A stretch of 64,000 nt of DNA from a virus (Duplodnaviria > Heunggongvirae > Uroviricota > Caudoviricetes): the IMG/VR virus record IMGVR_UViG_3300023174_000136, positions 1 through 64,000 of that record, one strand, 5' to 3'. Below the pieces are notes generated by a model, which saw nothing but the letters and a program-made list of their open reading frames with translations, ran no database searches and was not told the DNA's origin. Below, piece by piece: positions 17,243 to 63,685 of this stretch; the stretch's first letter is position 1, and each line of letters begins with the position of its first letter. The position numbers were made by a program, and so were the translations under genes.

Positions 17243-17866
17243 ATGACCATTTATTACATCAACACCGGTACTAGTCCAAATAAAGGTGATGGTGATCCCC
17301 TACGCACGGCATTCAATAAAATTAATCAAAACTTCACATATTTGTCTACTGCTAGTTTCAGTGGTGGCACTGCTGGCGGAAAATATGCTATAGACGGTGG
17401 CAATGCAGCATCCGATGTTACCGGAGAAGTACTAGTTGATGTCTCGACTGTTTTAGTTAATATACTTGGCAGTGTATCAACAATCAATGGCCAGTTAATA
17501 ATAAACGGAGTTACTGGTAAAATTGAATTGTCTGCATTGCCTAATTCATTACCGGCAGTTTTTAATCTCACTGCAAATTTTAACTCTACAGGTAATTTAA
17601 GTAATTTGACCAATCTTCCAACTGGATGGAGTTATTCTCAGGCGGGAAATATAGTTACTATAAATCATAATATTGGAAGACAACCCTTTCAAATTTCATA
17701 TTGGGGTTATTCAGTTACAGAAGGTCAACGATTAAGATTCCCTACAGCGGGGTATCAAGTTAGTAGAACAACCACTTCACCATATTCATTTACTATGAAT
17801 TTAAACTCTGCGGTCACTGGTGCAGATAATAATCAATATGCAGTAGTTGGAATAATGTTTGTATGA
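17243..17866 (+). CDS. tail-fibre/virion structural protein
   Basis: N-terminal motif GDGDPLRTAFNKINQNF, followed by a Thr/Ser/Asn/Gly-rich beta-rich sequence. Confidence 0.5.
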   Translation: MTIYYINTGTSPNKGDGDPLRTAFNKINQNFTYLSTASFSGGTAGGKYAIDGGNAASDVTGEVLVDVSTVLVNILGSVSTINGQLIINGVTGKIELSALPNSLPAVFNLTANFNSTGNLSNLTNLPTGWSYSQAGNIVTINHNIGRQPFQISYWGYSVTEGQRLRFPTAGYQVSRTTTSPYSFTMNLNSAVTGADNNQYAVVGIMFV

Positions 17867-18660
17867 CACAGTTAGCTCCATCAAAGGTTCTTAAAATAAA
17901 CATTTTGAATCTAACTCCGGTTGAGCAATATGGACAAGAACCTAATCCAAATCAACCTTGGAGATTTTCTGCCAATTTAACAATTGTGCCTCAACTACAT
18001 AGTGACCCAAGAACACCTCGTCCTGGAGTATATAACGGATACGATGTTGTTGTAGGTGATTACATTCTTTCACGAACATCTAGAGTTTTAAGAATTATTC
18101 AAATCAATTACCAAGATGATGACCAAGTAACATGTGTGCTAGAAGATCATAAACGATTAAACAGTAGTGTTGATGTGACTCAATCCGGTGAAAGTTCAAT
18201 TGATACAGGCCAGGGATTACTTTTTACATTGGCTTCTGGATTGCCTGTACTGTTTCCACTGCCAGGTGATTTGGGAAATCTTAGTTTTGAAAGTTTAGTT
18301 GAGGTGTTAGGAAGATTCGTTTATTCCGAGGGATTTGCCTTGATTAATATGAATGATCTTGACATTACGAATCTACAACAAGGATCAATTTTAACTTATT
18401 CTACATCAACTGAGACTTGGAATGCAACCTCTTTAAACAGTACAACATTTTCAATATCCAGTGGAACTATTTCTCTTAAAACAATAGGAACTTCTCTAGG
18501 CGGAACAGGTATTACTTCTTATACTACTGGTGATATTCTATACGCATTATCATCATCGACTCTGGTGACTTTGTCCAAACCTTCTACTTTTTCTTTTCTT
18601 ACAATGGATAATAATGGAACACCTAGTTGGGCCAATACAGTTGACGGCGGAACTTACTAA
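17863..18660 (+). CDS. virion structural / fibre-associated protein
   Basis: ATGA overlap. 265 aa, rich in Ser, Thr, Asn and Leu. Confidence 0.45.
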   Translation: MTQLAPSKVLKINILNLTPVEQYGQEPNPNQPWRFSANLTIVPQLHSDPRTPRPGVYNGYDVVVGDYILSRTSRVLRIIQINYQDDDQVTCVLEDHKRLNSSVDVTQSGESSIDTGQGLLFTLASGLPVLFPLPGDLGNLSFESLVEVLGRFVYSEGFALINMNDLDITNLQQGSILTYSTSTETWNATSLNSTTFSISSGTISLKTIGTSLGGTGITSYTTGDILYALSSSTLVTLSKPSTFSFLTMDNNGTPSWANTVDGGTY

Positions 18661-18713
18661 ATAACATAGACTGGTTTTTACCTTAACGTCTTGTGTCCTT
18701 ATTAGGAGTTGCT

Positions 18714-21700
18714 ATGCCCGATTTACCAATATATCTAAAAAGATCATCAGTTTCTGGCAAAGTTCCGACCGCTGCTGATCTAGCCTATGGCGAATTGGCC
18801 CTAAACTACACTGATGGTAAATTATATTTTAAATTATCAAATGATGTAATTCATCAAATTCCTGATAGAGCAAATAATGATTTAAGATATCTACTACAAG
18901 CTGGTGGTACGATGACCGGTACACTGGTCATTAATGAATTGACTATTGCTAATTCAACTATGTCTGGAGCATTACAGGTTCGCGGCGGACTTGGAGTCGG
19001 AGGTAGCATTTATGCTTCTGACGTATATTCAAATGGATTAAAGATAGAGGCATTTAATACTTCAACACTAGTTGCACAATCAGTTAGTGCCACAACATCT
19101 AACTTTGCAACAACATCTGGATTTGCACAGAGTTTTAATACCAGTACACTTGTAGCAAATGCAGTCTCTGCATCTACATCAAACTATGCAACTACTAGTG
19201 GATTTGCACAGAGCTTCAACACTTCAACTCTTGTGGCAAATGCAGTATCAGCCACTACAGCCAGTTTTGCAACAACAAGTGGATATGCAGAATCATTTAA
19301 TACAAGTACACTGGTTGCAAATGCAGTATCAGCCACTACAGCCAGTTTTGCAACAACAAGTGGATATGCAGAATCATTTAATACCAGTACACTGGTTGCA
19401 AATGCAGTCTCTGCAACAACATCTAACTATGCAACAACCAGTGGTTATGCACAGAGCTTCAACACAAGTACTTTAGTGGCAAATGCGGTATCAGCTACAA
19501 CATCTAATTATGCAACTACTAGTGGTTATGCAGAATCATTTAATACTGCGACACTTGTATCAAATGCGGTTACTGCGCAGAGTTTAGGCACTGGTATTAT
19601 TAATATTCATAATGCAACTAGTTCCAGTTACTACGGTGATGGTGCATTGATTGTTGCTGGTGGTGTGGGTATAGCCAATGGATTAAATGTTTATGGTAAT
19701 ACAAATATTACAGGTAATCTCAGTGTCTCTGGTAGTATAACAGGAACTAACATATCAGTCACTGTAAATCAAGTTACAGCAACAAGTGGTGTATTTTTTG
19801 GGGACGATACAGGTGCTGGTGCATTATACGCAGGTATACCGGGATATACTCCATTTGGTCAGACTATGTTCCAGGCCGCAGGTAATTTTAATGATTACAT
19901 GGAAATAAATGTTCAAAATATCAATCCAGGAACTAAGAATAGTACAGATATAGTTGCGTCTGCTGACAATGTTGGATTTAATAATTCATTTATTGATATG
20001 GGCATTACTGGCAGCGGATGGGACGGAAGTCAGCATTATAGCTTTGGTACAGTTTTAAATCCCAATGACGGATACCTATTGGTTGGTCATAACACAGTTG
20101 ACAATAGAGGCTCATTGGTAATAGGTACGACTACCAGCGGTACAAATATTAAATTTGTAGTAGCAGCAACTAATGCAAGCTCATCATTAACTCAGGTTAC
20201 ATCAGAATCGGTTGCAATGTCTATAAATCCAGCTGGTACACTTGCAATTTCAACAACCACTGGTGCATTAGTAGTTGTTGGCGGCGTGGGTATTAGTGAT
20301 AGTCTACATGCTGGTAATATATATTCTAACGGAATACTTCTTCAAAATTTTAGTACATCTACACTGGTAGCAAATGCAGTATCAGCAACAACGTCAAACT
20401 ACGCAACAACTAGTGGATTTGCACAGAGCTTTAATACTTCGACACTGGTAGCAAATGCAGTATCAGCAACAACGTCAAACTACGCAACAACTAGTGGATT
20501 TGCACAGAGCTTTAATACAAGCACTTTAGTAGCAAATGCAGTATCAGCAACAACGTCAAACTACGCAACAACTAGTGGATTTGCACAGAGCTTTAATACA
20601 AGCACTTTAGTAGCAAATGCAGTATCGGCAACTAATTTTACTTCTGGAAGAATTGATGGTAGATTAGTTTTAAGTCCAGGAGCAAATAGTACATCTGCTT
20701 GGACTACTAATGGCGTTGCATTAATTCAATCAAGTGCTACTTATACTGACCTAACGTCTTCAGGTACTGTTGCCGCGACGTATGTTAATTTATTTGGTGC
20801 ACCGACTGTCGCGGCAACTAATACTACCACATATACAGAAGCATATAATACATATTTTAAAAGTCCAGTTGCTGGTACAAATACTGCTATTACTAGTGCT
20901 TATGCATTGGGCGCAGATTCGTTAAGTGTGAATGGTAGCGTAGGCGTCCCATTAGGTGGTGCTGGCCTCATTTTTAGTGTGGGTTCATCACAGAGCAACT
21001 CGACTATTAGAATAGGCGGCGCCTCTCAAACTGGTGAATTGACTTTTGGTAGATCCACAGTATCGCAAACTACTTATATTCAGGCTTCTGCTAACACATC
21101 TGGAACAATTAAGACCATTAACTTTGGCACAAGTGGTCTTACAAACTCAAACACTTTACTTAATATCGGTCCAGTATTAGGCACGGGAACTTTTGCAGTT
21201 AACGCAGGTACTGTAGTAACGATTGCTAATACTGCTTCATCTAATAGTACGACTACTGGTGCATTGCAGGTTGTGGGTGGAGTTGGAGTAGGAGGCAATC
21301 TCAATGTTGGCGGCGTAATTACTGCAACAAACATTTATGTTGGAACTTGGCCAGTATCAACCGGTTCAGGTGGTGGCGGACTTTCCTCTGTTGCGATTCA
21401 GTACAACGGTGCATCTATTGGATCTGCTACTACTATTAACTTTGCCACTGGCACTACAGCCACCGTTACTGGATCAGTAGTAACATTGCAAGTATTGTCA
21501 GTAAACACCGCATCATTTGCAACTACTAGTGGATTTGCACAATCATTTAATACTTCAACATTAGTTGCTAATGCAGTATCGGCATCTACATCAAACTATG
21601 CAACTACCTCTGGATTTGCACAATCATTTAATACAAGTACATTAGTTGCTAATGCAGTTTCTGCATCTACATCAAACTATGCAACAACTAGTGGTTTTGC

Positions 21701-22109
21701 ACAGAGCTTCAATACAAGTACACTCGTTGCAAATGCGGTATCGGCAACTACAGCTTCATTTGCAACAACATCTGGTTATGTGCCTAGCTATCAAACAACT
21801 GCGTCAATTACAAATAATGTGCTAACCATAAATCTAACAACAAGTACACTATTTAATGTCAATATGACTGCGGCTATAAACACAGTGACTATAACAAATG
21901 TTGCTGCATCTGGAACAATTTCCAGCTTTATACTAGCACTAAATAATCAAGGATCAGTGTATTCAGTAGTTTGGCCTACATCATTTAGATGGTCCGGAGG
22001 CACTGCGCCAACACTAACTGGTACATTGAATAAAAAAGATGTTATTGTTGCATACACAGATGACAGTGGATCTAACTATTATGCATTTGTTTCAGGAAAT
22101 AATTTATAA
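18714..22109 (+). CDS. large tail fibre with three arrays of a 27-aa (81-bp) tandem repeat
   Basis: AGGAG RBS before ATG 18714. The track's TTG at 18693 is in the same frame. The unit FNTSTLVANAVSATTSNYATTSGFAQS occurs 13 or more times. The N-terminus, LKRSSVSGKVPTAADLAYGELALNYTDGKLYFK, is fibre-like. Confidence 0.7.
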   Translation: MPDLPIYLKRSSVSGKVPTAADLAYGELALNYTDGKLYFKLSNDVIHQIPDRANNDLRYLLQAGGTMTGTLVINELTIANSTMSGALQVRGGLGVGGSIYASDVYSNGLKIEAFNTSTLVAQSVSATTSNFATTSGFAQSFNTSTLVANAVSASTSNYATTSGFAQSFNTSTLVANAVSATTASFATTSGYAESFNTSTLVANAVSATTASFATTSGYAESFNTSTLVANAVSATTSNYATTSGYAQSFNTSTLVANAVSATTSNYATTSGYAESFNTATLVSNAVTAQSLGTGIINIHNATSSSYYGDGALIVAGGVGIANGLNVYGNTNITGNLSVSGSITGTNISVTVNQVTATSGVFFGDDTGAGALYAGIPGYTPFGQTMFQAAGNFNDYMEINVQNINPGTKNSTDIVASADNVGFNNSFIDMGITGSGWDGSQHYSFGTVLNPNDGYLLVGHNTVDNRGSLVIGTTTSGTNIKFVVAATNASSSLTQVTSESVAMSINPAGTLAISTTTGALVVVGGVGISDSLHAGNIYSNGILLQNFSTSTLVANAVSATTSNYATTSGFAQSFNTSTLVANAVSATTSNYATTSGFAQSFNTSTLVANAVSATTSNYATTSGFAQSFNTSTLVANAVSATNFTSGRIDGRLVLSPGANSTSAWTTNGVALIQSSATYTDLTSSGTVAATYVNLFGAPTVAATNTTTYTEAYNTYFKSPVAGTNTAITSAYALGADSLSVNGSVGVPLGGAGLIFSVGSSQSNSTIRIGGASQTGELTFGRSTVSQTTYIQASANTSGTIKTINFGTSGLTNSNTLLNIGPVLGTGTFAVNAGTVVTIANTASSNSTTTGALQVVGGVGVGGNLNVGGVITATNIYVGTWPVSTGSGGGGLSSVAIQYNGASIGSATTINFATGTTATVTGSVVTLQVLSVNTASFATTSGFAQSFNTSTLVANAVSASTSNYATTSGFAQSFNTSTLVANAVSASTSNYATTSGFAQSFNTSTLVANAVSATTASFATTSGYVPSYQTTASITNNVLTINLTTSTLFNVNMTAAINTVTITNVAASGTISSFILALNNQGSVYSVVWPTSFRWSGGTAPTLTGTLNKKDVIVAYTDDSGSNYYAFVSGNNL
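19053..19590 (+). repeat. 81-bp coding tandem repeat array 1 (about 6.5 copies)
   Basis: Repeated DNA and peptide units are visible. Copies differ at a few codons (SNY/ASF, FAQ/YAE). Confidence 0.8.
20347..20640 (+). repeat. 81-bp coding tandem repeat array 2 (about 3.5 copies, nearly identical DNA)
   Basis: The unit tttaatac...gcaaatgcagtatcagcaacaacgtcaaactacgcaacaactagtggatttgcacagagc is repeated almost exactly. Confidence 0.8.
21507..21790 (+). repeat. 81-bp coding tandem repeat array 3 (about 3.5 copies)
   Basis: Same unit, with SAS/SAT variants. Confidence 0.8.
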
Positions 22110-22591
22110 TGAGTAATTGGGCTTATGTTGAAAATAATCAAGTAACTGATCTTTATTATGATCTGCCAACTAATTGGCGCAACATCAGTAACTTTTTTAC
22201 TCTTGCGGATAATCTTGCGTTTTTGCAAACATTCGGCTGGTATCCTGTTGAAAAAGTAACTCCAAGTTTTAATTCATCTACCCAAGAATTATCTGCGCCA
22301 AGATTTGAAATTACAGATGACAAAGTTTTAGAAATTAGAGATATCATTGATCTTCCTGTTATTCCCCAAGAAGTATTGTTGAATCAACAATGGAATGTGA
22401 TAAAAGCCGAACGCGATCAATTGATGATACAAAATGATTGGAGATATGCTCGAAACTCGCGAGAAATTAGACTAGGTTTGACTCCTACTGAAACTTTAGA
22501 AACAATAGATAATTATATGCAAGCATTAGCAGACATTACTAAACAAACAGATCCATTTAATATAATATGGCCAACATATAACGGAGTATAA
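22109..22591 (+). CDS. hypothetical protein, possibly a fibre assembly/chaperone protein by position
   Basis: TAATG-coupled to the fibre gene. 160 aa. I recognise no motif. Confidence 0.45.
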   Translation: MSNWAYVENNQVTDLYYDLPTNWRNISNFFTLADNLAFLQTFGWYPVEKVTPSFNSSTQELSAPRFEITDDKVLEIRDIIDLPVIPQEVLLNQQWNVIKAERDQLMIQNDWRYARNSREIRLGLTPTETLETIDNYMQALADITKQTDPFNIIWPTYNGV

Positions 22592-28037: not shown

Positions 28038-28045
28038 AGGTAAAA

Positions 28046-30464: not shown

Positions 30465-31072
30465 TGTATAAGTTTACTTGGGATTTTAATTTTAACAAAG
30501 AAGGTGGCGCAAAAGCAAATATTGCTGCACTGATCAATGAATTTGGCCTTCCAACAACTATTGTTGAAATAGGATCATACGAAGGATTAACTACTTTTTG
30601 GATGAATGATGAAATTGGACCGTTGAATCCTAATCTTAAAATTTATAGTATAGATCCGCATGGCGGAAGTATAGACATAAAAGACGATTTTAACACAGTT
30701 GCTGAAAATTTTCACCACAATATGCAGGTATGCGAAAATAATAAAATCACTCACCTTAATAAAAAAAGTGAGCATGGCCTCGTTGATTTAATAAATCAAA
30801 GAATAGAAGCTGAATTGATTTATATTGATGGTGATCACACTGCCGGTACTGTATTAACTGACCTAGTCTTATCGTGGCAAATATTGAAAAATGGCGGAGT
30901 TATACTCTGTGACGATACAGTGGTGTGGAAATACAAAGATAAAAACGGAGCCTGTTCTGCGCAAATGAGTCCTAGACTAGCGGTTGAAACATTCATTCAA
31001 TGCCATTGGCATGAACTTGAAATTTTGGCCTTGCCAAACAGTACTCAAACAGCATTTAGGAAAATTATATGA
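30464..31072 (+). CDS. class I SAM-dependent methyltransferase (CmcI/TylF-like, Methyltransf_24-type)
   Basis: TIVEIGSYEGLTTFW, IYSIDPHGG, LIYIDGDHTAGTVLTDL and NGGVILCDD are the motifs of this family. Confidence 0.6.
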   Translation: MYKFTWDFNFNKEGGAKANIAALINEFGLPTTIVEIGSYEGLTTFWMNDEIGPLNPNLKIYSIDPHGGSIDIKDDFNTVAENFHHNMQVCENNKITHLNKKSEHGLVDLINQRIEAELIYIDGDHTAGTVLTDLVLSWQILKNGGVILCDDTVVWKYKDKNGACSAQMSPRLAVETFIQCHWHELEILALPNSTQTAFRKII

Positions 31073-31863
31073 ACAAAATAGTTTTTACCGCAGGATTGCC
31101 AAGAGCCGGATCTACTCTTCTTGGCGCAATATTAAATCAAAATCCTAGATTTTCAGCAGGTATTACAAATCCCTTGGCACCATGTATTCGATCAGTAATT
31201 AAAGAAACCTCGACTAGACTAGGAAATAGACAAGTTTGCGATATTGAAACAAGAAAGCGCATGGTTAAATCTCTCATAGAAATGTATCATGAAGAGGACT
31301 CTGCTGAAGTAATTTTTAACCATAACCGTACTTGGCCACTGGCTTTGAACATTATCAAGGATATATATCCAGATGCAAAATTAATATTATTAGTTCGTGA
31401 CCTAGGATGGATATTAGATAGTTTTGAAGTTTTATTAAGAAAGAATCCCTATGTATATTCAAGATTATTTGATAATCTTGAGACGGATACAGTTTACGCT
31501 AGGTGTGAATCTCTTTTGAAAGAAAAAGGCACAGTTGGATTTGCCTATGATTGTGTTAAACAAGCAATGACAAGTGAATTTTCTGAAGATATTATGATCA
31601 TTGATTATGATTCTTTTGTGTCGAATCCCAAATTAGCAATTGAAAATTTATATAATTTCATTGATGAACCGCTATTTGAGCATGACTTTGAAAATGTTGA
31701 GAGTAGTTTTGACGAATATGATGAAGATTTAAGTGCTCCAGGATTACACACTGTAAAACGCAGAGTGGAGTTTGTTCCTAGAAAATCAATTATTCCTCCT
31801 GATATTTGGTTAAGTGTTGAGGGCAAAGAAGTTTGGAAAATTCAAAATTCAAAGAATAGCTAA
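31069..31863 (+). CDS. sulfotransferase (PAPS-dependent)
   Basis: FTAGLPRAGSTLLGAIL is the 5'-PSB P-loop. LLVRDLGWILDSF is a 3'-PB-like motif. Confidence 0.6.
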   Translation: MNKIVFTAGLPRAGSTLLGAILNQNPRFSAGITNPLAPCIRSVIKETSTRLGNRQVCDIETRKRMVKSLIEMYHEEDSAEVIFNHNRTWPLALNIIKDIYPDAKLILLVRDLGWILDSFEVLLRKNPYVYSRLFDNLETDTVYARCESLLKEKGTVGFAYDCVKQAMTSEFSEDIMIIDYDSFVSNPKLAIENLYNFIDEPLFEHDFENVESSFDEYDEDLSAPGLHTVKRRVEFVPRKSIIPPDIWLSVEGKEVWKIQNSKNS

Positions 31864-31893: not shown

Positions 31894-34800
31894 GTGTCCA
31901 AAATAAAACTACGTAGAGATCTAGCTGCCAACTGGGAAAGCATTAATCCTGTGTTATCCTCGGGAGAGCCTGGATTTGATTTAACATCTAAAAAATTAAA
32001 AATAGGCAATGGTATCACCGCATGGAACGGATTACCATATGTTTCTTCGGATAATACAGCTACTCCAGGACCACAGGGTCCACAAGGTATACAAGGTATA
32101 CAAGGATCAGAAGGACCTCCTGGACCACAAGGTATTCAAGGACCTCGAGGACTTCAAGGATCTCAGGGTGTTCGTGGCGTACAAGGAATACAAGGACTTC
32201 GCGGCTCAACCGGAACACAGGGTATTCAAGGACTACAAGGCGCACAAGGTGCGGCAGTAAGATTACTTGGCACTGTTACCGATTTTACATCATTGCCAGG
32301 ATCGGCCGAAATTGGCGACGGGTATATTACGGTTGATACTGGCGATCTTTGGTTTTGGGGAACAAATACACAATGGTATGACGTTGGTAGAATTGTTGGA
32401 CCCCAGGGCATTCAAGGAATCCAGGGTCCCGTAGGTCCACAAGGTCCACAAGGGTCCACGGGCACTCAAGGAATTCAAGGTATTGAAGGTCCTCAAGGCG
32501 AACAAGGTCCTCGAGGACTTCAAGGAAATACCGGAACTCAAGGCATTCAAGGTCCACAAGGACTTCAAGGACTTCAGGGTCTAGTAGGTCCCGGAGTTGC
32601 ATCTGGTGGAACTATTGGGCAAATATTAGTCAAAGCTAGTTCAAGTGATTACGATACCGCATGGTCAATACCATCAACCATAGCATTTACCGTTACTAAC
32701 ATAAGTTATTTTACAAATGATGTAGGATATATCACCTCAACTTCGTCATTGATAAATGGAACTGCAACTTTCTCTCTCAATACAGCCGGTACACTTACTT
32801 CGCCTGGATCTATTATTCCCGATACGGATTTATCATATGATTTGGGATCTACGTCTAGTCAATGGCGTAGTTTGTATGTAGGAACTGGCACTATCTATAT
32901 AGGCGGAGTAGCTCTAGGCGTTAACCAGGACAACTATGTCACAGTCGATGGTAATCCTATTATTACATTAAACACCGCCGGTAATATCACACTTCAGGGT
33001 AATAATATTGTTGGTACTGTTACTATATCAGACACGGCGCCTGTAGTCAACACAGGAACACAATGGTTTAATACTGTTGAAGGACGTACTTATATTGCTG
33101 CCAACGGTTTGTGGTTAGATTCTAACCCAACACAAATTCCAAGTCCGGAAACATATCTAGATGGATTGGCAATTGATGGTACCATTATTAGTACTGCTAA
33201 TGTTGACAGCGATGCTATTGTGGTAGATGGCGGGGATAATACAAAGTTATCTGTCAGCAACAATAGTGTAAAGATACAAACTCCCGGAGAGCAAACTCGT
33301 TCATTTTGGGTAGCAGAATACGGTGGTATAACCACCGCGACTACTACGTCTACATTTACTCTAGGCACCGGTGCTTTCTATGATAGTCTAGGCAATGTAT
33401 ATGTACTAGGAGCTATACAGTATGGTGACTTTAATTTTAACAATGTAGATAGTCTATTTTTAAAATATGACACTAATGGTAATTTACTATGGCATAGGAC
33501 ATGGCATGATGATGGAGGCTATAATTGTGGCACCGTCAATCAAGCATTTGCAATAGACAGTAATGACCGTATCTATTGGCTTGCCACTGATGCTACTGGA
33601 TACAATTGTTGGACTGGTTATTTTGATACCGATGGAAATCTCGGGCTTGGCGGAACAGCCCAACAAAGTTTAGGATTTACCAACGGAAGCCTTTCTGCTA
33701 CCGATATAGCATGTGATAATTCTGGAAATTATTATATAGCAGGTTCTTACTATAATAGCAATGATACTCCGGTGGTGATTAAAATCGACGGAGACACTGG
33801 AAATGTAATTTGGAACGGTAATATAATACCTGAGGATTTTGAAGACCTTCCTAGTTTCGGACGATATCGTGCTGTAACTGTTAACCCGGTGTCTGGTGAT
33901 GTTTGGGCCATAGGTGATTACGACGACGATGGCGGTTTATATGCCATGCTATCTAAGTGGGACATCAACGGTACACATCAATGGACCAAAAAATTAGTTA
34001 CTCAAACCGGGGATATAGCGTCTGCGGTAATATTTAACAGTGGTTTTGTTTATACCATAGTAAACGATGACGGCGAACAAAAAGCGGTGGTGTCTAAATT
34101 TGACACAGATGGAGTTTTGATATGGGCTTCAGATCTGGCAGTAGGAGCGGTAGATCCTATTGCGAATTACTTGGAGAACTCGGGCGCATACGATTTAAGT
34201 TTTGATGCCAATGGCAATGTCTATGTAACTGGAATAATACCATCTATTAGTAGCACTAATCAGTTGTGGATAACAAAACTTGATCCTTCTAATGGTGAAA
34301 TGTTATACAGTCGTATGCTAGGAACACAATCGGGAGTAGCTATTATTGATGGATCTACCTATGGATTTAACAATGCTATTGGACACAGGGTAGGCGATAT
34401 CTATGAAGATAAAATTGCTGTTACTGCCATAACTCCCTCAGATATTAATGACAGTACTAGTACTAACGAAATAAGAATAATAGTAGCGCAACTGCCTATT
34501 GATGGTAGTATTGTTGGCACATTTGATAATGTAAGTATACTTGACATTACAAATGACTTGAACAGTATCTGTTCAACCGGTACATATACTGTAACCACCT
34601 TAATGTGGTCAACCTCTACCGCAGAAACACTACAATCAACCAGTACATTAGGCATTAGTTATGTTACTGATATAATTGGACTATCTGGCGAAACAATTTC
34701 TTTAGACAGTGTCAGTAGATCTTCTACCGTAACCAACACTTGGACATTTGTCAACAATAATATCATACTACCACCAGGTGGTGATATCCTTAACAGCAAT

Positions 34801-36777
34801 GGAGTTAGTGTGCTGGGCGCTACTAATGGCACCGCAGCAAATGGTTGGCAAATAACTTCTGGTACCTACAATGTATCTGTAGCCGATACAGGCGTTGTTA
34901 CAATGGCAACAAGTCGTGGAAATATAGAGTTTGGCGCATTGCCAGAATGTATCGGCGGAGTAAGTCACTTTCATATTATGAAGGCAGTAGATTCTGATGC
35001 CGTAGATTTATACTTTGGTGATGACTACAACTATGTACTACAGCGTGGTAATTCTGCATCTGAACTAGCTGGAAATACAAACGATTACGGTGTTGAAATT
35101 GGCACTAGGGATTTAAGTACCGAAACTAGCACCCAACATGTCTGGCGTTTTGGCACAGATGGTGTCTTAACATTAAGCACAGCCAGTACAATCCTAGGTA
35201 ATAACAATGATCCTAATATCTACATCGAAACTGCCACAACCAGTACAACCAGTACATGGACATTTGGCACCGACGGTTTACTAACACTGCCTGCGGCTAC
35301 TCCTATAATTCGAGGTGGTGGTACAGGTACGGATGTTACAGTAATTGCCACAACTGGTACAAACACAGCAACCTGGACATTTGCCGCAGATGGTAGTATT
35401 AATGTAGGACAAGCACAAGGTTTTATAGTTCGCACCATGACCGGTGCTAACGCAAGCCCTAGCAACTATGTATCTACATTTGAATTTGGGGTAGACGGTA
35501 CATTAATATTGCCTCAAGGTAGTGTTATAGGTGAAATAAACAACACCACAGTTATTACACCTCCTGGGGCACTGGCAGGCCAGGGATTGGCTATTAGAAC
35601 AACCGCAGGTGGCGGACTGCAAAGCGCCAACACATTCACTCCGGGTGGCACAATAATAGTGACATTCGTTGATAATGGTGCACACTTTAGTGATAGCCAA
35701 ATCAGCGGCGAAAGCAATACCTGGACCTATACTATTACAGGAATATCTCAAGCAGATTTAGGTAGTCCGTTGACTGGTGTATTCTTGGGTGAAAATTGGA
35801 CTATTGTTAACAGTACTAATGTTAATACAGCAACATTTAACATTCCTGCCCTAAGTAACGGAACAGGATTTACAATCACACTAGATAAAATAATGACCCA
35901 GCCTCCATTCAATCTTGGCACTAGTGTTATATTAGATAGCAATGGTCGTAATAGTCTCACCATTGGATCTGTTCCTGAAATAAGTCATGTACACTTGACA
36001 TCTGTTGATCCTTCAACCGTTGACCTATTTCTAGGCGATGATGATCAATATGTTAAGATTGAAAAGAATCACGGTGATGTTGTTATTGGCACTGGTATGA
36101 TAGGTGTTCCAATCGGCTTGGACAGTTGGAGCGGAGAGGGTGGATGGGACTCCACTCCCTACATCAATACAGCCACAACAGGTGGCTCAGGTACAGGTTT
36201 GACAGTAAATGTTAATTCTTCCAACGGTGGATACATTGATATCAATTCCATTACTATAGCTAATCCTGGCACAGGATATACCGTTGGCGATGTTATAACC
36301 ATTAACAATGAAAACGATCTTCCTGGTACATTTACAATCAGTACTGTTACTAATTATTCAAACAATTGGACCTTTAGCAACACCGGTACAGTAACATTCC
36401 CAGATGCCACCGTTCAACACACAGCATATCCTACTGGGCAACAGACTGTTCTTGTTAATGCGGCATCAACTAGCACGGCGATAGAGTTAATGGAACTAAC
36501 AGGATCAGTAGTAATGATATACCCAGAGACTGGTTACGATACGCCAAATGAACTACACGCAATAGTTCTACCATTCGACAATCTTGGACTTAATCCAATT
36601 ATTGCTGTAGGAACACGCATTACAGTTATTAATCAGTATACTGGATCTGTTGATATTACTGGTTGGTCAGGTGGGCCATACACTATGCAAGAGTATGAAA
36701 GTTTAGAGTTAATTTATACATATAATCCAGACTATAATGGAAATATGTGGTGGTTAATTAACTCATATATTTGGTAA
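31894..36777 (+). CDS. collagen-like tail fibre (1627 aa) with a conserved fibre N-terminal domain, two Gly-X-Y blocks and a long beta-rich shaft
   Basis: GTG start after ATGGAG. The N-terminus, [47 protein letters not shown], is shared with the 38510 and 51780 proteins. [22 protein letters not shown]... is a collagen-like repeat. Confidence 0.8.
   Translation: [1627 protein letters not shown]
32059..32257 (+). repeat. collagen-like Gly-X-Y coding repeat block 1 (about 22 triplets)
   Basis: [61 protein letters not shown]. Confidence 0.85.
32398..32593 (+). repeat. collagen-like Gly-X-Y coding repeat block 2 (about 21 triplets)
   Basis: [66 protein letters not shown]. Confidence 0.85.
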
Positions 36778-36781
36778 TAAA

Positions 36782-37537
36782 ATGTCAATAACTATTAAAT
36801 CAGCACAAACTATCAGCAACGGTGTTACATTACGAGGTAACAATACTCAATATGTAATACCAGCTGTCCCAGATAGACTATTTGAACTAGATGCCAGCAT
36901 CTACGAATCGGGTGCCACTTGGTTAGATCAGTCAGGTAATGATAGACACGCTACATTACATGGTACAGTTCCTTACTACACTGATTCAGTGGGTGGATAT
37001 TTTGGTTTTACAGGCCAAGGTGTCAATTACATTGATATAGCAGGTAGTGAGTCGGGTTGGGGTATAGCAGATAATATACCACCTAATGCCACACTCAGCA
37101 TATGGGCAAACATCAATCAAATCTCTTTTTATCAACATGTTGCAGGCTGGCGCGGCGGTTACTTTCATTTTTATTTTTTAATGCTGGCCAACCAACTGAG
37201 TAATATAACAGAAGCAAGAGTTGTAAATTCTGTGGGTAGTTATGATATAACCATACCTTACAATGCTTATTTTAATACCTGGGCTTATATAACATTCGTA
37301 GCCGACAGCAATACTGGACAATCAATACTTTATATTAACTCTACTCAAATAGGAACGGCTAATATTGGCAGTGATAATTGGGTCAATACTAATATACCAT
37401 TTAGGATAGGCAGTGCTGACGGAGGAGACTTTCCCTTAAACGGTTATATTGGTGGAGTAACGGCCTACAGCCGAGCACTTACACAGCAGGAAGTCACTAG
37501 TGAGTTTAACAGAACTAAAACAAGGTACGGACTATGA
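36782..37537 (+). CDS. LamG/concanavalin-A-like lectin-domain protein (fibre tip/adhesin candidate), paralog 1
   Basis: The C-terminus GYIGGVTAYSRALTQQEVTSEFN resembles the Laminin_G_3 end motif (...IYNRALSxxEI...). It is a tandem paralog of the next gene. Confidence 0.5.
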   Translation: MSITIKSAQTISNGVTLRGNNTQYVIPAVPDRLFELDASIYESGATWLDQSGNDRHATLHGTVPYYTDSVGGYFGFTGQGVNYIDIAGSESGWGIADNIPPNATLSIWANINQISFYQHVAGWRGGYFHFYFLMLANQLSNITEARVVNSVGSYDITIPYNAYFNTWAYITFVADSNTGQSILYINSTQIGTANIGSDNWVNTNIPFRIGSADGGDFPLNGYIGGVTAYSRALTQQEVTSEFNRTKTRYGL

Positions 37538-38274
37538 GTCTAATACTTAATTCAGGATTCACTATAGGTCCGGGCGTGGTGCTAGATGCTAATCCTTATA
37601 TCCCGCCATCTGTTGTCAGCAGTGGATTGGTGCTACACCTTGATGCCAGCAACCCCTACTGCTACACTGGATCAACAGGTATAGTACCACATCAAAGCGT
37701 AATTGATGATTTGTCTATCTATGCGGGTTATCCCTATGCCCAAGCCGGCTATGTTCAAAATCCAAGTTACAGTATAACCTGGACTGATGATGGATCAGCC
37801 AGTTATTTTACTTGGCCAAGCAATGCCTATGCCGATGATTACATTAATATAACTACGCAACGCATCTACAGAGACTTTACCATAGTATTCCAACCAGATT
37901 TCTCGGCTAATGGATTTGGTGGGCTATTTGGCGTGACCGCAGATAAGAGTATGAGATTCTACAGTGGCGTCAACGGCACAGGGCCTTGGGTTGCGGCCAA
38001 TCCGGGCAACGGAGACGATTGGGCCGCCGGTCCAACTACCTATTACATAAACGGTCAGGCCAGTGACACTACAGTAGCAGGCTGGAACATCATGGGCGGA
38101 GCAAGAAACAACGCAGGATTCCCTGAGCCTTCAGATTTAAGGATCGGTACCAGTTGGTATCAGTATCGCGGCTTTCAAGGTAAGATCGCAGTGGTTCTAA
38201 TGTATGACAGAGTGCTAACAGATCAAGAGCAACTACAGAACTATAATGTTCTACGAGCAAGGTTCGGACTATAA
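37534..38274 (+). CDS. LamG/concanavalin-A-like lectin-domain protein, paralog 2
   Basis: ATGA overlap. The C-terminus is KIAVVLMYDRVLTDQEQLQNYNVLRARFGL. Confidence 0.5.
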   Translation: MSLILNSGFTIGPGVVLDANPYIPPSVVSSGLVLHLDASNPYCYTGSTGIVPHQSVIDDLSIYAGYPYAQAGYVQNPSYSITWTDDGSASYFTWPSNAYADDYINITTQRIYRDFTIVFQPDFSANGFGGLFGVTADKSMRFYSGVNGTGPWVAANPGNGDDWAAGPTTYYINGQASDTTVAGWNIMGGARNNAGFPEPSDLRIGTSWYQYRGFQGKIAVVLMYDRVLTDQEQLQNYNVLRARFGL

Positions 38275-38290: not shown

Positions 38291-38497
38291 ATGACAGCAA
38301 TAACATTTCCAACAAACCCTATAATAGGACAATCGTATGTGGCTACTAACGCTGTAACCTATACATGGACGGGTGATCGATGGTCATCTAGTCAGGCGAT
38401 CGGTAGTAATCAAGCAAAATATTATGTGGAGGGTGGCGATTCTGCATGGACCTACACTACAGCAACAGACATCACCCTAGATGGTGGAACAGCATAA
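38291..38497 (+). CDS. small structural-like protein
   Basis: An ATG in the same frame as the track's ORF 38246..38497, chosen because it avoids overlapping the upstream gene. The peptide is Thr/Gly/Tyr-rich. Confidence 0.35.
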   Translation: MTAITFPTNPIIGQSYVATNAVTYTWTGDRWSSSQAIGSNQAKYYVEGGDSAWTYTTATDITLDGGTA

Positions 38498-38509: not shown

Positions 38510-40339
38510 ATGACAGCAAGAATTAAACTAAGAAGAGATACAGCCGCTAATTGGACCACTAATGATCCGGTATTGGCATTAGGTGAAGCAGGATACGACT
38601 CTACTAACAATGAACTGAGAGTAGGTGACGGTACCACTGCATGGAGCGGATTAGAAGCTGTTGGCGGCGGAGTTAGCAATGCTGTTGCTATTGCTCCAGA
38701 ATTTGGACCTGCTATAACTTTTGCCCGTCCAGAAAATACAGCAACAGATGCTGTTAATGCTGTTGATGTTATTGACGCAGGTGTGGCACTAGGTCGTAAC
38801 AGTAATCAGGGTGGACTATTAAACACTTTAGAAGACAGCCTAAGCGGTTACAACAGCGGTAACTATGCTGGCCAACCAACATATACAGAGTGGAACACAG
38901 ATGGTTTAGCAGATTTAAGCAACGTAACCACTAGAGTTTATGACAACTTTAAGAACATGAAACAGAGTCTCAGCGACGACGAGTTTCTTGCCACCCATTT
39001 GATCATGCACGATACACTCAACGACAAGTATTACACATTTAAGTTCAGTCGCTGGAGTGTGAGGGATAATGGTGGTGATGGTGGATACAGTTATGTTCGT
39101 AGATTGATCAATCATACTCAATACTTTACTAAACCTAACTATCAAACTACCACTACCGACACGGTTGCTACTGGATTAACAATCAAACGAGGAAACAACG
39201 GCGGTATCTATAATGTTGCAGCTGAAGGTAGTTTTAACAGTGATGTTAGTCCAAGTGGCACAGAATGGAATATTGATGGATGGAGTGACCTAAGCAATCT
39301 ACTCACAAGAACTTATACTAACTTTACATCAGCATTCAGTTATCAAATTGGCGAAAGAATCATTGGCAAAGAAGCTGTCATGCACGATACTATCAATGAC
39401 AAATATTATGCTGTAAAATTCCTGGAATGGGGACAGAATAATGGCGGCAGTTTTACCTGGCAACGCAGATTAATTGATACTACTCAACTCAATGAAGGTC
39501 TACACTTTGCTGATGGCACAGTACAGACCACAGCTGGTGTTACATTCAATGATGACGGGAGTTTGAATTTAGATGGCGGACTTGCCTTGCCATATCAAAA
39601 TAACCCATCCTATCGGACTGGCAACAACAACTACGGCCGAACATTAAAGTTAAGTAATGACAGCAAAAATTCAATTGTTATCACAGGACCGGTGGCTACA
39701 GAGAACAACTCATATGCCCAGCGTATCGTAATCCAGGGACAGCGTGGCTATGGCTCAACCAGTACTACAGGTGAAGGTGGTGATGTTTATATCTGGGGAG
39801 GAGTTGGTGGAGAAACCAACAATAACAGCAATGGCTGGGGCTACGGTGGTGGCAGCGGCGGTGATGTTAAATTACGCGGTGGTGAAGGCCTTAACAGCGA
39901 CGGTGGTTATGCTAAAATTGAAGGTGGCAATGTTGCTCACTTTAACACCTCTACCACAGGCAATGCTGGATTTGTGGAAATCACCGGCGGTGATGTAACT
40001 GTTGATAATGCCGCAGTTAGTAGCCACGGCGGCGACATTAGAATCACAGGTGGTCGTGCTTACTCAGCAACCACACAGTCTGGAGTTGTTCAGGTAATCA
40101 CAGGCGGTCGTGCCAATGGTGATGTTATTGGTGACAAGATTTGGACATTTGGCAATGATGGTAGGACTAAAATTCCGCACGGCTCTAGTAATCCAACCAC
40201 CGCTCGTGGTGCTGACGGAGACAAAGCAGGTATGATACTAGTTTCAGGTGCTTATCTATACTATTGCTACGCTGATTATACAGATGGTCAATCAGCAATT
40301 TGGCAAAAAGTAAGTATGGATAATACAGACTGGGATTAA
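38510..40339 (+). CDS. tail fibre with the conserved N-terminal domain, an internal ~80-aa duplication and a Gly-rich GGD-repeat C-terminus
   Basis: CGGAG RBS. The N-terminus is ARIKLRRDTAANWTTNDPVLALGEAGYDSTNNELRVGDGTTAWSGL. Duplicated segments EWNTDGLADLSNVTTRVYDNF...HDTLNDKYYTFKF and EWNIDGWSDLSNLLTRTYTNF...HDTINDKYYAVKF are visible. Confidence 0.65.
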   Translation: MTARIKLRRDTAANWTTNDPVLALGEAGYDSTNNELRVGDGTTAWSGLEAVGGGVSNAVAIAPEFGPAITFARPENTATDAVNAVDVIDAGVALGRNSNQGGLLNTLEDSLSGYNSGNYAGQPTYTEWNTDGLADLSNVTTRVYDNFKNMKQSLSDDEFLATHLIMHDTLNDKYYTFKFSRWSVRDNGGDGGYSYVRRLINHTQYFTKPNYQTTTTDTVATGLTIKRGNNGGIYNVAAEGSFNSDVSPSGTEWNIDGWSDLSNLLTRTYTNFTSAFSYQIGERIIGKEAVMHDTINDKYYAVKFLEWGQNNGGSFTWQRRLIDTTQLNEGLHFADGTVQTTAGVTFNDDGSLNLDGGLALPYQNNPSYRTGNNNYGRTLKLSNDSKNSIVITGPVATENNSYAQRIVIQGQRGYGSTSTTGEGGDVYIWGGVGGETNNNSNGWGYGGGSGGDVKLRGGEGLNSDGGYAKIEGGNVAHFNTSTTGNAGFVEITGGDVTVDNAAVSSHGGDIRITGGRAYSATTQSGVVQVITGGRANGDVIGDKIWTFGNDGRTKIPHGSSNPTTARGADGDKAGMILVSGAYLYYCYADYTDGQSAIWQKVSMDNTDWD

Positions 40340-51779: not shown

Positions 51780-53366
51780 GTGTCCATAGTTCAAATCAGC
51801 AGAATTCAAGTCCGTCGAGGTCAAACCACAATCACAGGTGTTCCACAACTTGCTAGCGGTGAACTTGGATGGAGCGTCGATCAGCAACAGTTGTATATTG
51901 GAAATGGAACGGTCAGTGATGGTGCGCCAGCAGTAGGTAATACTAGAATTTTGACTGAACATGATGCAAACATTTTTGCACTTACTACTCCTAATTATAT
52001 CTACTTAAATACGGAAAGCGGACCTTCGGTCCAAACAGGTCCATCTAGTAATCCTAACATTATTAGATTCATGCAGAATAAACTGGATGATACAGTTAAC
52101 TTACGAGACTTTGGTGCAACAGGAAATGGAGCGGTTGCAGACACTGGTGCTATACAACGAGCAGTCCTTCATGCGTCTTCCACTGGAAAAATTCTAAATT
52201 TTCCTGAAGGTACTTATCTAGTAACTGCCACAATATATCTTCCTCCACGTACTGAGATCAGAGGATCAGGAATTAATAAGACCACACTGGTCGCGACTAC
52301 TACTGCAACCATATTTCAAACAGTAGGCAGAGATATTAATGGAAGTATAGTATTGAATCCAAGCGGAGCGGTATCGACTCCTAGAGATATTGTCATTGAT
52401 AAAATTGGATTTGTTTCCTCATTAACTAACGCAGCTGCCATCATCAAATTTAACAGTGTTCTGGACGGTGTTATTTCTTCGTGTGGATTTAAAGGAAATC
52501 TATCACAGGTATCAACAAGTACCCATGCACCTGCTATTGAAATATTAGGCAGTGGATTATTAACTTGTGATGGAATTTCTATTAGGAATTCCATATTTCA
52601 AAGCTTGGGCACTGCATTGATTTCTAACTATGATGTAAAACGAGTAGAAATTTCAAATAATAAATTTAAAGACATTGATGCAGGTATGGTATTCATGAAA
52701 AATCCAGTATCCGGAAATATTATAGGACCTGATGCAGTTGTTATTCATGACAATACATTCTATAACATTAACAATCAAGCAGTATTTGATGGCAGCACTG
52801 GTACCAATAATTCATCTGTGAAAAGTTATAACAATTCTTATACAAGAGTGGGAGTTGGATATAATAATATTCAAGGAGATCTGGTTCAGGTCACTGAAGT
52901 TTTAAAATTTTCAAATTTTGATAACGTATCAATTAATGATGATTTTTCCAGACTGTATTCAATCAATACTGGATCTGTTTCTGCATTTTCTACTATTGTG
53001 CCAATCATCAACGGCCCAGTGTCATTTACAACTCAATTAATTAAACCTATTATTATCGCCTCTGCTGGTACTTATAATGTTTTTGCTTGGCCAACTAATG
53101 TTTATACTGCAAGCGGTGTTACTTGTCCAGGACAATCAATTTCTATCAATTATACTTTTGCAGCATCAAATACACTACGTGAAGGATCTGTTGATGTAGT
53201 AGTTAACGCAAACCGCTCTACTATCAATGACATATTTTCATACACCGACGCAAATGACGGTGGGTTGACCTTTGCATTAAATCAGTCCAGGAACGATGTA
53301 ACGGTGATAACTGTTACCGCTAGTGTTACTGGCACCTTAACTTATTCAATTAATATAAGACAATAA
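51780..53366 (+). CDS. tailspike/depolymerase with the conserved fibre N-terminal domain plus a pectate-lyase-fold (right-handed beta-helix) domain
   Basis: GTG start after AGGAGA. The N-terminus is ISRIQVRRGQ...LASGELGWSVDQQQLYIGNG. NLRDFGATGNGAVADTGAIQRAV is the pectate_lyase_3-type N-cap motif. Confidence 0.65.
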   Translation: MSIVQISRIQVRRGQTTITGVPQLASGELGWSVDQQQLYIGNGTVSDGAPAVGNTRILTEHDANIFALTTPNYIYLNTESGPSVQTGPSSNPNIIRFMQNKLDDTVNLRDFGATGNGAVADTGAIQRAVLHASSTGKILNFPEGTYLVTATIYLPPRTEIRGSGINKTTLVATTTATIFQTVGRDINGSIVLNPSGAVSTPRDIVIDKIGFVSSLTNAAAIIKFNSVLDGVISSCGFKGNLSQVSTSTHAPAIEILGSGLLTCDGISIRNSIFQSLGTALISNYDVKRVEISNNKFKDIDAGMVFMKNPVSGNIIGPDAVVIHDNTFYNINNQAVFDGSTGTNNSSVKSYNNSYTRVGVGYNNIQGDLVQVTEVLKFSNFDNVSINDDFSRLYSINTGSVSAFSTIVPIINGPVSFTTQLIKPIIIASAGTYNVFAWPTNVYTASGVTCPGQSISINYTFAASNTLREGSVDVVVNANRSTINDIFSYTDANDGGLTFALNQSRNDVTVITVTASVTGTLTYSINIRQ

Positions 53367-63294: not shown

Positions 63295-63303
63295 AACGTT
63301 ATC

Positions 63304-63679: not shown

Positions 63680-63685
63680 CTAATC

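Follow-up and report, generated by a model that had tools for sequence, protein, structure and literature searches.

Does one N-terminal attachment domain, shared by several fibre and tailspike genes of a single phage, plug all of their products into one adaptor of the virion? The question is raised by a locus within the window, i.e., the whole 64,000-nucleotide stretch of DNA analysed (positions 1 to 64,000 of the IMG/VR virus record IMGVR_UViG_3300023174_000136). Its central gene, ORF 31894, was originally predicted from the letters of the DNA to encode a collagen-like fibre sharing its N-terminal domain with the products of ORFs 38510 and 51780, so that a collagen shaft, a Gly-rich fibre and a beta-helix depolymerase would be three alternative distal modules of one attachment domain, carried on a single adaptor. 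The reading to which we assign a probability of about 80% is that ORF 31894 codes for a mosaic tail-fibre-type receptor-binding protein (RBP) of an uncultivated huge phage of ca. 334 kb.

The gene content of the window is that of a phage: beside the fibre genes and a chaperone for fibres, it includes endolysin and spanin-like genes and genes for RNR and DNA ligase; relatives are located on contigs of 125 to 387 kb. Genes for GT25, methyltransferase, and sulfotransferase enzymes lie upstream of the fibre, which their products may modify. A giant-virus origin, hinted at by collagen, RCC1, and glycosyltransferase, was ruled out by overlapping prokaryote-style ORFs with Shine–Dalgarno sites, and further by the spanin- and endolysin-like genes, the tail-fibre chaperone, a tmRNA, and the PHROG matches. 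Each of the three ORFs discussed below has a GGAG ribosome-binding site before its start codon, in ORF 31894 ca. 8 nt 5' of the GTG. The features are collected in Table 1.

Table 1. Fibre-related features of the window and the domains of the collagen-like fibre
Feature	Position (nt)	Strand	Description
Collagen-like tail-fibre-type gene (ORF 31894)	31894..36777	+	mosaic; 1627 aa, GTG start, GGAG RBS upstream
Mtd_N of collagen fibre	31903..32043	+	aa 4-50, Pfam PF18454 5.7e-14
Collagen block 1	32068..32256	+	aa 59-121, 21 uninterrupted Gly-X-Y triplets, Y mostly Gln
Non-collagen 'knot'	32257..32397	+	47 aa (aa 122-168), motif GDG[WY]I..D.G.LWFW....W.D[IV]G
Collagen block 2	32398..32595	+	aa 169-234, 22 uninterrupted Gly-X-Y triplets
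Conserved fibre core	32761..35313	+	aa ~290-1140, from HSP map and coverage map
Predicted beta-propeller domain	33292..34704	+	aa ~467-937, from AF2 and Foldseek
C-terminal tip	36403..36774	+	aa ~1504-1627, swappable module
Two concanavalin-A/Laminin_G_3-like proteins	36782..38274	+	251 and 246 aa; genes lie between those of the fibres, syntenic in relatives
Small ORF (38291)	38291..38497	+	68 aa, domain 'ITFP..G..Y....TY.W.GD.W'
Second Mtd_N protein, Gly-rich fibre (ORF 38510)	38510..40339	+	609 aa, Mtd_N aa 5-51 (nt 38522-38662)
Third Mtd_N protein, predicted beta-helix tailspike (ORF 51780)	51780..53366	+	528 aa, Mtd_N aa ~6-55 (nt 51795-51944)
Further fibre genes, other N-terminal types	17243..22591	+	ORFs 17243, 18693, and 22109
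ORF 17243			INTG..GDGD type N-terminus; weak T4_gp9_10_N match, E 0.2
ORF 18693			1138 aa, T4 long-tail-fibre-distal-type N-terminus
ORF 22109			tail-fibre assembly chaperone

Mosaic organization of the collagen-like fibre

The product of ORF 31894 comprises, from the N- to the C-terminus, an Mtd_N domain, a collagen block, a conserved knot, a second collagen block, a shaft, a predicted beta-propeller, fibrous repeats, and a swappable tip. Its strongest PHROG matches are to tail and tail-fibre families (best 1.9e-43). The two blocks of about 21 Gly-X-Y triplets and the short linker originally described were confirmed as runs of 21 and 22 triplets on either side of a 47-aa non-collagen segment, and the Pfam Collagen family (PF01391) is matched with an E value of 5e-17 (61.8 bits vs. 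a threshold of 27.2); shuffling the protein 2000 times gave a longest Gly-X-Y run of at most 7 (mean 3.4). The Y positions are dominated by Gln and include a single Pro. A triple helix is predicted for both blocks, and at the textbook collagen rise of 0.286 nm per residue they are expected to form rods of ca. 18 and 19 nm. The knot joining them, whose motif recurs in 17 of 120 fibre-body homologues and in a single Mtd_N ORF from IMG/VR, would probably act as a hinge or as a registration element between the rods.

The conserved core is 59 to 74% identical in related huge-phage contigs in which the fibre has other N-termini and tips. One orthologue, P0001, is encoded on a 125-kb contig and is 97% identical, but in the HSP map this identity ends at aa 1503; the tip of the collagen fibre matches P0002 and P0003 at 53–54%, and not P0001. 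In the AF2 model of aa 428–1627 (m5d2ddab01fb9), the propeller alone is confident, with pLDDT of 75–94 in most blocks, while the C-terminal ca. 420 aa stay below 35, which leaves the tip without a model. The best Foldseek match of the propeller is the beta-propeller of CylK (E 1.4e-15, rmsd 4.4 A), and the same list contains the RBPs of phages phi11 and 80alpha, and endosialidases; the Pfam family SBBP (PF06739) is matched weakly, at 16.9 bits, below its threshold of 20.5.

The fibre is presumably a homotrimer, in which the Mtd_N domains should form a small beta-prism plugging it into the virion, followed by the two rods and, distal to the second of them, by a shaft that would be rich in beta structure. 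The propeller probably has a glycan-binding or enzymatic role and would be separated by fibrous W-x-F-x-x-D-G repeats from the exchangeable tip, which is the probable receptor-contacting end, touching the host.

Near-identical DNA was not found among cultured phages, and a tblastn search of 50,697 phage records with the fibre body returned one marginal match only; consequently, the protein has no experimental relative. The sequence of the fibre body had no meaningful match in the PDB either.

The Mtd_N domain and its three copies in the window

The N-terminal domain of the collagen fibre, compared with known heads as the original prediction proposed, proved to belong to a catalogued family, Mtd_N (PF18454). 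The family is matched by ORF 31894 (aa 4–42, 52.2 bits), ORF 38510 (aa 5–43; 6.6e-15, 55.2 bits) and, just below the gathering threshold of 26.3 bits, by ORF 51780 (aa 9–44; 9.9e-6, 25.8 bits). A profile of five N-termini matches the HylP chains 6x3m, 2dp5, 2yvv, 3eka, and 2c3f (E 4.6e-5 to 1.8e-4), which are structures of hyaluronidases from streptococcal phages, whereas the BPP-1 Mtd chain is absent among the PDB profile matches at E ≤ 1. The HylP matches align N-terminus to N-terminus.

The recurrence of the first ca. 50 residues in the two other proteins, with the more divergent copy in ORF 51780, stands: BLASTP aligned the collagen fibre with the 609-aa protein (27 of 49 positions identical, 55%; E 8e-21) and with the 528-aa protein (20 of 52, 38%; E 1e-7). 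The pairwise similarity is significant for these two pairs, while the 609-aa and 528-aa proteins gave no alignment with each other. This last result, together with the sub-threshold Pfam score, would fit a chance or convergent resemblance of the ORF 51780 N-terminus, with the domain shared by just two proteins. Such a resemblance is effectively refuted by a profile–profile comparison (hhalign) of canonical N-termini with those of 74 tailspike homologues (probability 96.8%, E 2.8e-10) and by precomputed PF18454 matches passing the threshold in most of the 120 tailspike-family members listed (the best 120 of 1415), as well as opposed by the BLASTP value given above. The N-terminus of ORF 51780 is a divergent member of the Mtd_N family, and the heads of the collagen fibre, the 609-aa fibre, and the tailspike are paralogous copies.

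An HMM of the three N-termini, run against all stop-to-stop ORFs of the window, revealed no further clear copy. The next-best ORF was 44978 (E 0.008), which has an N-terminus in common with ORF 42201 (GE.G.LFYD..G.LR.SDG.TPGG); this type matches the second half of Mtd_N with a probability of 86.6% over just 22 columns, a match that does not hold against the profile of the tailspike family. The N-terminus of ORF 18693, considered as another Mtd_N copy, is not significantly related.

The two other proteins were correctly labelled 'Gly-rich fibre' and 'pectate-lyase tailspike' in the original prediction. The former is a conserved fibre of this phage clade: an identical protein, P0241, is encoded on a 334,494-bp contig, and 71 of 120 homologues retain Mtd_N. 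The 528-aa protein carries PF12708 at aa 106–300 (5.5e-12), and its AF2 model (pLDDT 88.6 overall, 50–78 in the Mtd_N part, modelled as a monomer) resembles solved tailspikes, with 7chu, 5w5p, 6e1r, 6f7k, 6c72, and 2vbm at the top of the Foldseek list (E 2e-11 to 3e-9). It is accordingly modelled as a pectate-lyase-like beta-helix tailspike and is likely a polysaccharide depolymerase. Its gene sits between exonuclease and RNR genes, outside the fibre cluster.

Conservation is polar in both families. In that of the 609-aa fibre it amounts to 90% at the N-terminus and 16–30% in the last ca. 60 aa, and in that of the tailspike to 70% for residues 1–50 and 19–43% for the rest. The best-conserved N-domain of the tailspike and the most variable tip of the 609-aa fibre fit a virion-proximal attachment by Mtd_N, and Mtd_N is presumed to be the trimeric beta-prism head attaching the collagen fibre to the virion.

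In phages at large, Mtd_N is among the commonest N-terminal heads of fibres. Its profile matches ca. 30,000 protein clusters, and it often occurs internally or in 2 to 7 tandem copies, and also as stand-alone proteins of ca. 100 aa (e.g., the gene at 20482-20781 of locus L084). In IMG/VR, Mtd_N genes often come in groups of two or three, at least two such genes being found in 13 of 80 six-kb loci, and collagen repeats follow Mtd_N in 13 of 97 Mtd_N ORFs. Structural proteins of pelagimyophages have likewise been noted to contain collagen repeats and Mtd domains (PMC7029224). The proposal of one attachment domain with three distal modules is upheld as regards a homologous head on unrelated distal parts and the pattern of conservation, but the widespread Mtd_N is not an anchor private to this phage.

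One socket or several

Since three genes for receptor recognition headed by Mtd_N are present in one genome, the virion most likely displays several different RBPs. The number of docking sites is a separate matter, on which the relatives are informative. In the clade of ca. 290–390 kb, the slot of the big fibre keeps the core (aa ~290–1140) and swaps the N-terminal head: syntenic orthologues on contigs of 291 to 355 kb have other N-terminal domains, while the adjacent 609-aa fibre retains Mtd_N. At least five unrelated head types were distinguished, i.e., Mtd_N, INTG..GDGD (T4 gp9/10-N-like), LNFP..Y.YDG.KW, SNLFNSF, and KKIKAGG/GE.G.LFYD. The window itself has at least three of them (Mtd_N, INTG..GDGD, and GE.G.LFYD) at the head of other fibre genes or small ORFs, in addition to a small ORF that is LNFP-like. 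The small ORF 38291, called as 83–84 aa in relatives, carries a domain of a type that also heads other collagen-fibre homologues. The two concanavalin-A/Laminin_G_3-like proteins encoded between the fibres are possible fibre accessories.

That one and the same baseplate adaptor or socket receives all three Mtd_N proteins, which would compete for it or share it, seems doubtful, and the single adaptor of the original prediction is not supported. A common docking partner would agree with the homology of the three N-termini, with the N-domain being the best-conserved part of the tailspike family, and with the frequent clustering of two or three Mtd_N genes in IMG/VR loci. However, the 55% and 38% identities and the third pair that cannot be aligned are far below the near-identity expected of interchangeable plugs, no candidate adaptor was found, and the swapping of the head at the collagen-fibre slot with Mtd_N kept on the 609-aa fibre indicates that these two are not bound to a common socket. 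A role of Mtd_N as a generic cap for trimerisation or folding, with attachment taking place elsewhere or via separate adaptors (for example, the small proteins in which a domain stands alone), is likewise unlikely. The great number of clusters, the tandem and internal copies, and the stand-alone proteins are hard to square with one fixed docking role, but most relatives and all three window proteins have the domain at their extreme N-terminus, and like known anchors (PMC10408124) it is more conserved than the remainder of the protein.

An even less likely reading concerns the location in the virion, the collagen-like protein being a head, neck, or whisker-type decoration fibre instead of a tail fibre. 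PHROG 19200, a 'virion structural protein' of the head-and-packaging category, matches aa 3–92, the downstream LamG-like proteins match a 'head and packaging' PHROG, and one relative has a faint Phage_head_fibr match nearby; moreover, huge phages can bear capsid or neck fibres. The strongest PHROG matches are nevertheless to the tail and tail-fibre families, the gene adjoins a T4-type long-fibre gene and its chaperone, and a swappable C-terminal tip combined with a beta-propeller is typical of RBPs. A tail-fibre-type RBP remains the preferred assignment for ORF 31894.

As for its docking, the other heads found in relatives and the fibre genes of other N-terminal types in the window make several docking sites at least as likely as one, and the divergence of the copies together with anchor swapping in relatives favours separate, paralogous sockets. 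A tentative proposal is that, if the heads do serve as attachment domains, the virion has several parallel sockets between which recombination re-plugs whole fibres, an 'anchor shuffling' on top of the shuffling of tips. In the standard picture, what a lineage keeps fixed is the N-terminal anchor; anchor shuffling, if true, departs from it.

In this analysis the domains of a giant fibre were cleanly mapped; the uncultivated huge phage that encodes it probably carries several RBPs (two fibres and a depolymerase-type spike), and this bears on the breadth of host range in huge phages. That distal modules are exchanged behind a conserved N-terminal attachment domain is textbook phage biology, and the collagen rods and the shared N-domain, though real, are very common, known phage building blocks, so the finding is an ordinary one. 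Its sole slightly unusual aspect is the exchange of the N-terminal head on a conserved fibre core among relatives.

Comparison with known systems

The closest counterparts of the Mtd_N heads are those of Mtd, the major tropism determinant of Bordetella phage BPP-1, and of the streptococcal prophage hyaluronidases HylP1/2/3 (2c3f, 2dp5, 2yvv, 6x3m), which represent the same N-terminal family of ca. 45 aa, the PF18454 beta-prism. In BPP-1 this prism is the presumed point of attachment of Mtd to the tail fibre (PMC10743442). All these proteins are trimeric phage RBPs or depolymerases (a trimer being presumed for those of the window) that carry the head at their very N-terminus and unrelated distal modules behind it. 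Unlike in Mtd and HylP, the distal parts of the window proteins are neither a C-type lectin nor a triple-stranded beta-helix hyaluronidase, and no lectin-fold Pfam match is present in the three. A link to a DGR, suggested by the name Mtd, was rejected: a repeat scan found no TR/VR pair, and no reverse transcriptase is present among the annotated ORFs of the window.

Uninterrupted Gly-X-Y rods near the N-terminus with short globular breaks are shared with other collagen-like phage fibres and minor tail proteins (PF01391; PHROGs 819, 5073, and 1806, 'collagen like minor tail'), from which the present fibre differs in its Gln-rich Y positions, the particular 47-aa knot, and the beta-propeller predicted in the shaft. 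The modelled fold of the latter is common to the propeller RBPs (Gp45 of Staphylococcus phage phi11 and the 80alpha RBP), the endosialidases of K1F and phi92, and the SBBP-type CylK, its best match, but in sequence the identity does not exceed 21%.

According to the general model, a phage RBP is a homotrimer anchored by its N-terminus and binding through a C-terminal domain (PMC10408124). Several RBPs per genome, with a conserved N-terminus and variable, horizontally exchanged distal parts, are likewise found in multi-RBP phages such as CBA120/Kuttervirus, G7C, and the Klebsiella dual-RBP phages (PMC10408124, PMC13579863). In CBA120 and G7C, however, docking relies on T4 gp10-like/XD domains, for which the three proteins gave no Pfam match, the sole trace being the weak T4_gp9_10_N match of ORF 17243; the presumed anchor here is Mtd_N, and no branching hierarchy can be derived. 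A further difference from the multi-RBP phages is that the exchange in this clade extends to the N-terminal domain, the core of the fibre being conserved.

Anatomy of the collagen-containing fibre

The 1627-aa protein is an Mtd_N-headed, collagen-containing mosaic fibre of a phage with several probable receptor-binding proteins (RBPs), all of well-known kinds. Its ORF has a GTG start codon and a GGAG ribosome-binding site ca. 8 nt 5' of it. As originally predicted, two Gly-X-Y blocks are present (21 and 22 triplets, split by 47 non-collagen residues); shuffling the protein 2000 times gives longest runs of 3.4 triplets on average and 7 at most, and the Pfam Collagen score is 61.8 bits. In DNA, the blocks display degenerate periodicities of 9, 18, 27, 45, and 54 nt. 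The X positions are occupied by Pro, Ile, or Leu, and the Y positions by Gln in 29 of 43 cases and by Pro once. Collagen rises by 0.286 nm per residue, at which rods 1 and 2 would be ca. 18 and 19 nm long. The knot motif GDG[WY]I..D.G.LWFW....W.D[IV]G is found in 17 of 120 homologues.

The core, comprising the shaft, the propeller, and the start of the fibrous repeats, is 59–74% identical to the fibres of related contigs. The AF2 model is confident only in the propeller (pLDDT mostly 75–94), which in structure comes closest to the CylK propeller (E 1.4e-15), phage phi11/80alpha RBPs and endosialidases also being among the matches. The tip matches those of two homologues, P0002 and P0003, at 53–54%. 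P0001, an orthologue encoded by a 125-kb contig (L001), is 97% identical up to the tip, where an unrelated one of ca. 175 aa replaces the last ca. 125 aa, a very recent exchange between near-identical phages.

Features of the window (nucleotide positions, unless marked aa, i.e., residues of the 1627-aa fibre)
Feature	Position	Remarks
96-nt tandem repeats	1874-2161 (+)	in ORF 1679-2488
45-nt direct repeat	6856-6900, 8187-8231	
Homing-endonuclease gene	7126-8046 (-)	
ORF 17243		INTG-type head; weak T4_gp9_10_N match
1138-aa T4-type fibre	18693-22109 (+)	T4 long-fibre-distal-type head
1814-aa protein	22593-28037 (+)	
Four enzyme genes	28034-31863 (+)	
Collagen fibre	31894-36777 (+)	
Mtd_N	aa 4-50	
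Collagen rod 1	aa 59-121	21 triplets, uninterrupted
Knot		between rods 1 and 2
Collagen rod 2	aa 169-234	22 triplets, uninterrupted
Core	aa ~290-1140	
Beta-rich shaft		after rod 2; first part of core
Beta-propeller	aa ~467-937	inside core
Fibrous W-x-F-x-x-D-G-type repeats		between propeller and tip; first part in core
C-terminal tip	aa ~1504-1627	36403-36774 in the window
Small ORF	38291-38497 (+)	LNFP-like head type
609-aa fibre	38510-40339	
ORF 42201	42201-44360 (+)	GE.G.LFYD-type head
81-nt repeat copy	44017-44077	inside ORF 42201
ORF 44978	44978-45295 (+)	GE.G.LFYD-type head
528-aa tailspike	51780-53366	
RimK-like, QueC-like genes	61544-62425 (+), 40336-40929 (-)	
Permuted tmRNA	63301-63589 (+)	ARAGORN 63273-63680

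The shared N-terminal domain

The N-terminal domain recurs, as had been proposed, in the 609-aa fibre (27 of 49 residues identical to the collagen fibre, BLASTP E 8e-21) and, more divergently, in the 528-aa tailspike (20 of 52, E 1e-7); of the pairwise similarities expected, these two hold, but the 609-aa and 528-aa proteins give no pairwise alignment. The domain is Pfam Mtd_N (PF18454, 'Major tropism determinant N-terminal domain'), scored with E 5.7e-14 in the collagen fibre, 6.6e-15 in the 609-aa protein, and 9.9e-6 in the tailspike (25.8 bits, just below the curated cut-off of 26.3). The tailspike copy is secured by a profile–profile comparison (hhalign) of six canonical N-termini with 74 of the tailspike family (probability 96.8%, E 2.8e-10) and by the precomputed PF18454 in most of the 120 listed full-length tailspike homologues (1415 found). 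When all stop-to-stop ORFs of the window were searched with an HMM of the three copies, no fourth clear one emerged. Streptococcal phage hyaluronidases of solved structure (6x3m, 2dp5, 2yvv, 3eka, and 2c3f; E 4.6e-5 to 1.8e-4) are matched at their own N-termini by a profile built from five N-termini.

In the tailspike family residues 1–50 are 70% conserved and the remainder 19–43%, with 12 of 18 invariant columns in residues 10–59; for the 609-aa family the figures are 90% at the N-terminus and 16–30% over the last ca. 60 residues. Judged from sequence, this is the pattern of a putative virion-proximal anchor with a variable host-facing end. The polarity agrees with the general scheme of a homotrimeric RBP (PMC10408124) and with the presumed attachment of the Mtd beta-prism to the BPP-1 tail fibre (PMC10743442). 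The predicted structure of the 528-aa protein is a beta-helix (pLDDT 88.6), phage tailspikes and depolymerases being the closest solved structures. No sign of a diversity-generating retroelement was found: neither a TR/VR repeat pair nor a C-type lectin domain, and no reverse transcriptase among the annotated ORFs.

Neighbouring genes and the source phage

The enzyme genes directly 5' of the collagen fibre code for a methyltransferase-domain protein of 578 aa, a GT25 glycosyltransferase (PF01755, 3e-15), a Methyltransf_24 protein, and a sulfotransferase (PF13469, 1e-15). The near-identical contig L001 keeps them, the syntenic loci L002 and L084 lack them, and they could serve in modification of the fibre or a host glycan; hydroxylysine-linked glycosylation is unlikely, since the collagen blocks contain no Lys. 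The 1814-aa protein consists nearly entirely of RCC1/WD40_RLD beta-propeller repeats (PHROG 4.6e-151); its gene follows that of the fibre chaperone and precedes the enzyme cluster, and it is probably a further structural protein of the surface or adhesin type. An 81-nt (27-aa) unit is tandemly repeated in three arrays within the 1138-aa fibre gene, and one copy of it (79% identical) is found in ORF 42201, which points to shaft-repeat exchange between fibre genes. The small ORF just 5' of the 609-aa fibre (68 aa, 83–84 aa as called in relatives) is a stand-alone head, an 'ITFP..G.SY....TY.W.GD.W' domain that heads other big fibres in relatives. ORFs 42201, with a short End_tail_spike match, and 44978 share the N-terminal motif GE.G.L(F/W)YD..T..LR.(S/G)DG.TPGG, also heading the proteins P0014, P0063, P0077, and P0115.

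The window is phage DNA, with the T4-long-fibre-type gene followed by a Phage_tail_APC chaperone, lysis genes (endolysin, spanin-like), and genes for DNA ligase, ribonucleotide reductase, nucleases, and HNH/homing endonucleases. An uncultivated huge phage is indicated as its source, since a search of 50,697 phage records gave no near-identical DNA, a 334,494-bp metagenomic contig (ENA ERZ2680843 NODE_37) encodes a 100% identical counterpart of the 609-aa protein, and contigs bearing relatives of the three proteins measure 125–387 kb. The auxiliary genes of the window (RimK-like 'ribosomal protein S6 glutaminyl transferase', QueC-like) and those beside the fibre slot in relatives L002, L084, and L085 (eIF-1a-like, NifU, Fe-S biosynthesis) are typical of huge phages.

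The tmRNA is of the permuted (two-piece) type (Rfam tmRNA_permuted, 87.5 bits, E 2e-15), with the ARAGORN-predicted tag peptide AKTVNVNFVAHNDNDLSVMEIAA. Such tmRNAs typically occur in Alphaproteobacteria, some Betaproteobacteria, and Cyanobacteria, and this one may therefore hint at the host. The 45-nt repeats (91% identical, ending ...AAGGATATATTAAATG) flank the homing-endonuclease gene, which is on the minus strand while the genes around it are on the plus strand, and look like a gene-start or target region duplicated around a mobile endonuclease insertion. The protein that contains the three tandem 96-nt (32-aa) repeats, 78–79% identical, in its N-terminal half is HNH-endonuclease-like.

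Head types in relatives and the spread of Mtd_N

What stands of the original prediction is a homologous, putative attachment head on unrelated modules, but several RBPs on one adaptor are unlikely in view of the divergence of the heads and of other head types in homologues, syntenic relatives, and the window. The three heads are divergent paralogues (55% and 38% identical, the third pair unalignable). Mtd_N occurs in only 3 of 120 homologues of the collagen-fibre body, while ca. 59 carry an INTG..GDGD head and ca. 18 or more an LNFP..Y.YDG.KW one, with SNLFNSF, MPAIKFSQLS, or KKIKAGG/GE.G.LFYD in others. At syntenic loci of 291–355-kb relatives the big fibre bears a non-Mtd_N head, and the 609-aa-type fibre downstream retains Mtd_N where the contig reaches that far; 71 of the 120 listed 609-aa-body homologues keep it, and only distant ones differ. 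In hhalign the GE.G.LFYD head gives a borderline match (86.6% over 22 columns) with the latter half of Mtd_N, of which it would be a remote partial relative at best. Most simply, the virion would be complex, with sockets of several kinds and a fibre repertoire recombined at both ends. That the head is systematically exchanged on a conserved fibre core in this huge-phage clade is a tentative extension, with the odds leaning somewhat against it.

A profile of the domain, compared with 1.84 billion representative proteins, matches 30,173 clusters at E ≤ 1e-3, of which 16,282 reach E ≤ 1e-10, from stand-alone proteins of ca. 100 aa to fibres of ca. 2000 aa, some with 2–7 tandem copies. In P0361, P0362, P0366, P0379, and some other representative proteins the motif is internal or in 3–7 tandem copies, with no single head; such arrangements are at odds with a simple 'one head, one socket' role. 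A scan of IMG/VR yielded at least 535 relatives; 13 of the 80 six-kb loci kept contain two or three separate Mtd_N-headed ORFs, and at least 8 Gly-X-Y triplets follow the domain in 13 of their 97 Mtd_N ORFs. Among cultured phages, those of Microbacterium, Arthrobacter, and Synechococcus carry Mtd_N at the head of minor tail proteins, esterases, and hydrolases. Published cases of the domain include a tail protein of a Stenotrophomonas phage (PMC9206674), and its combination with collagen repeats is on record for the structural proteins of pelagimyophages (PMC7029224). By these counts and reports, both the combination of Mtd_N with collagen and the presence of several Mtd_N genes in one phage are ordinary.
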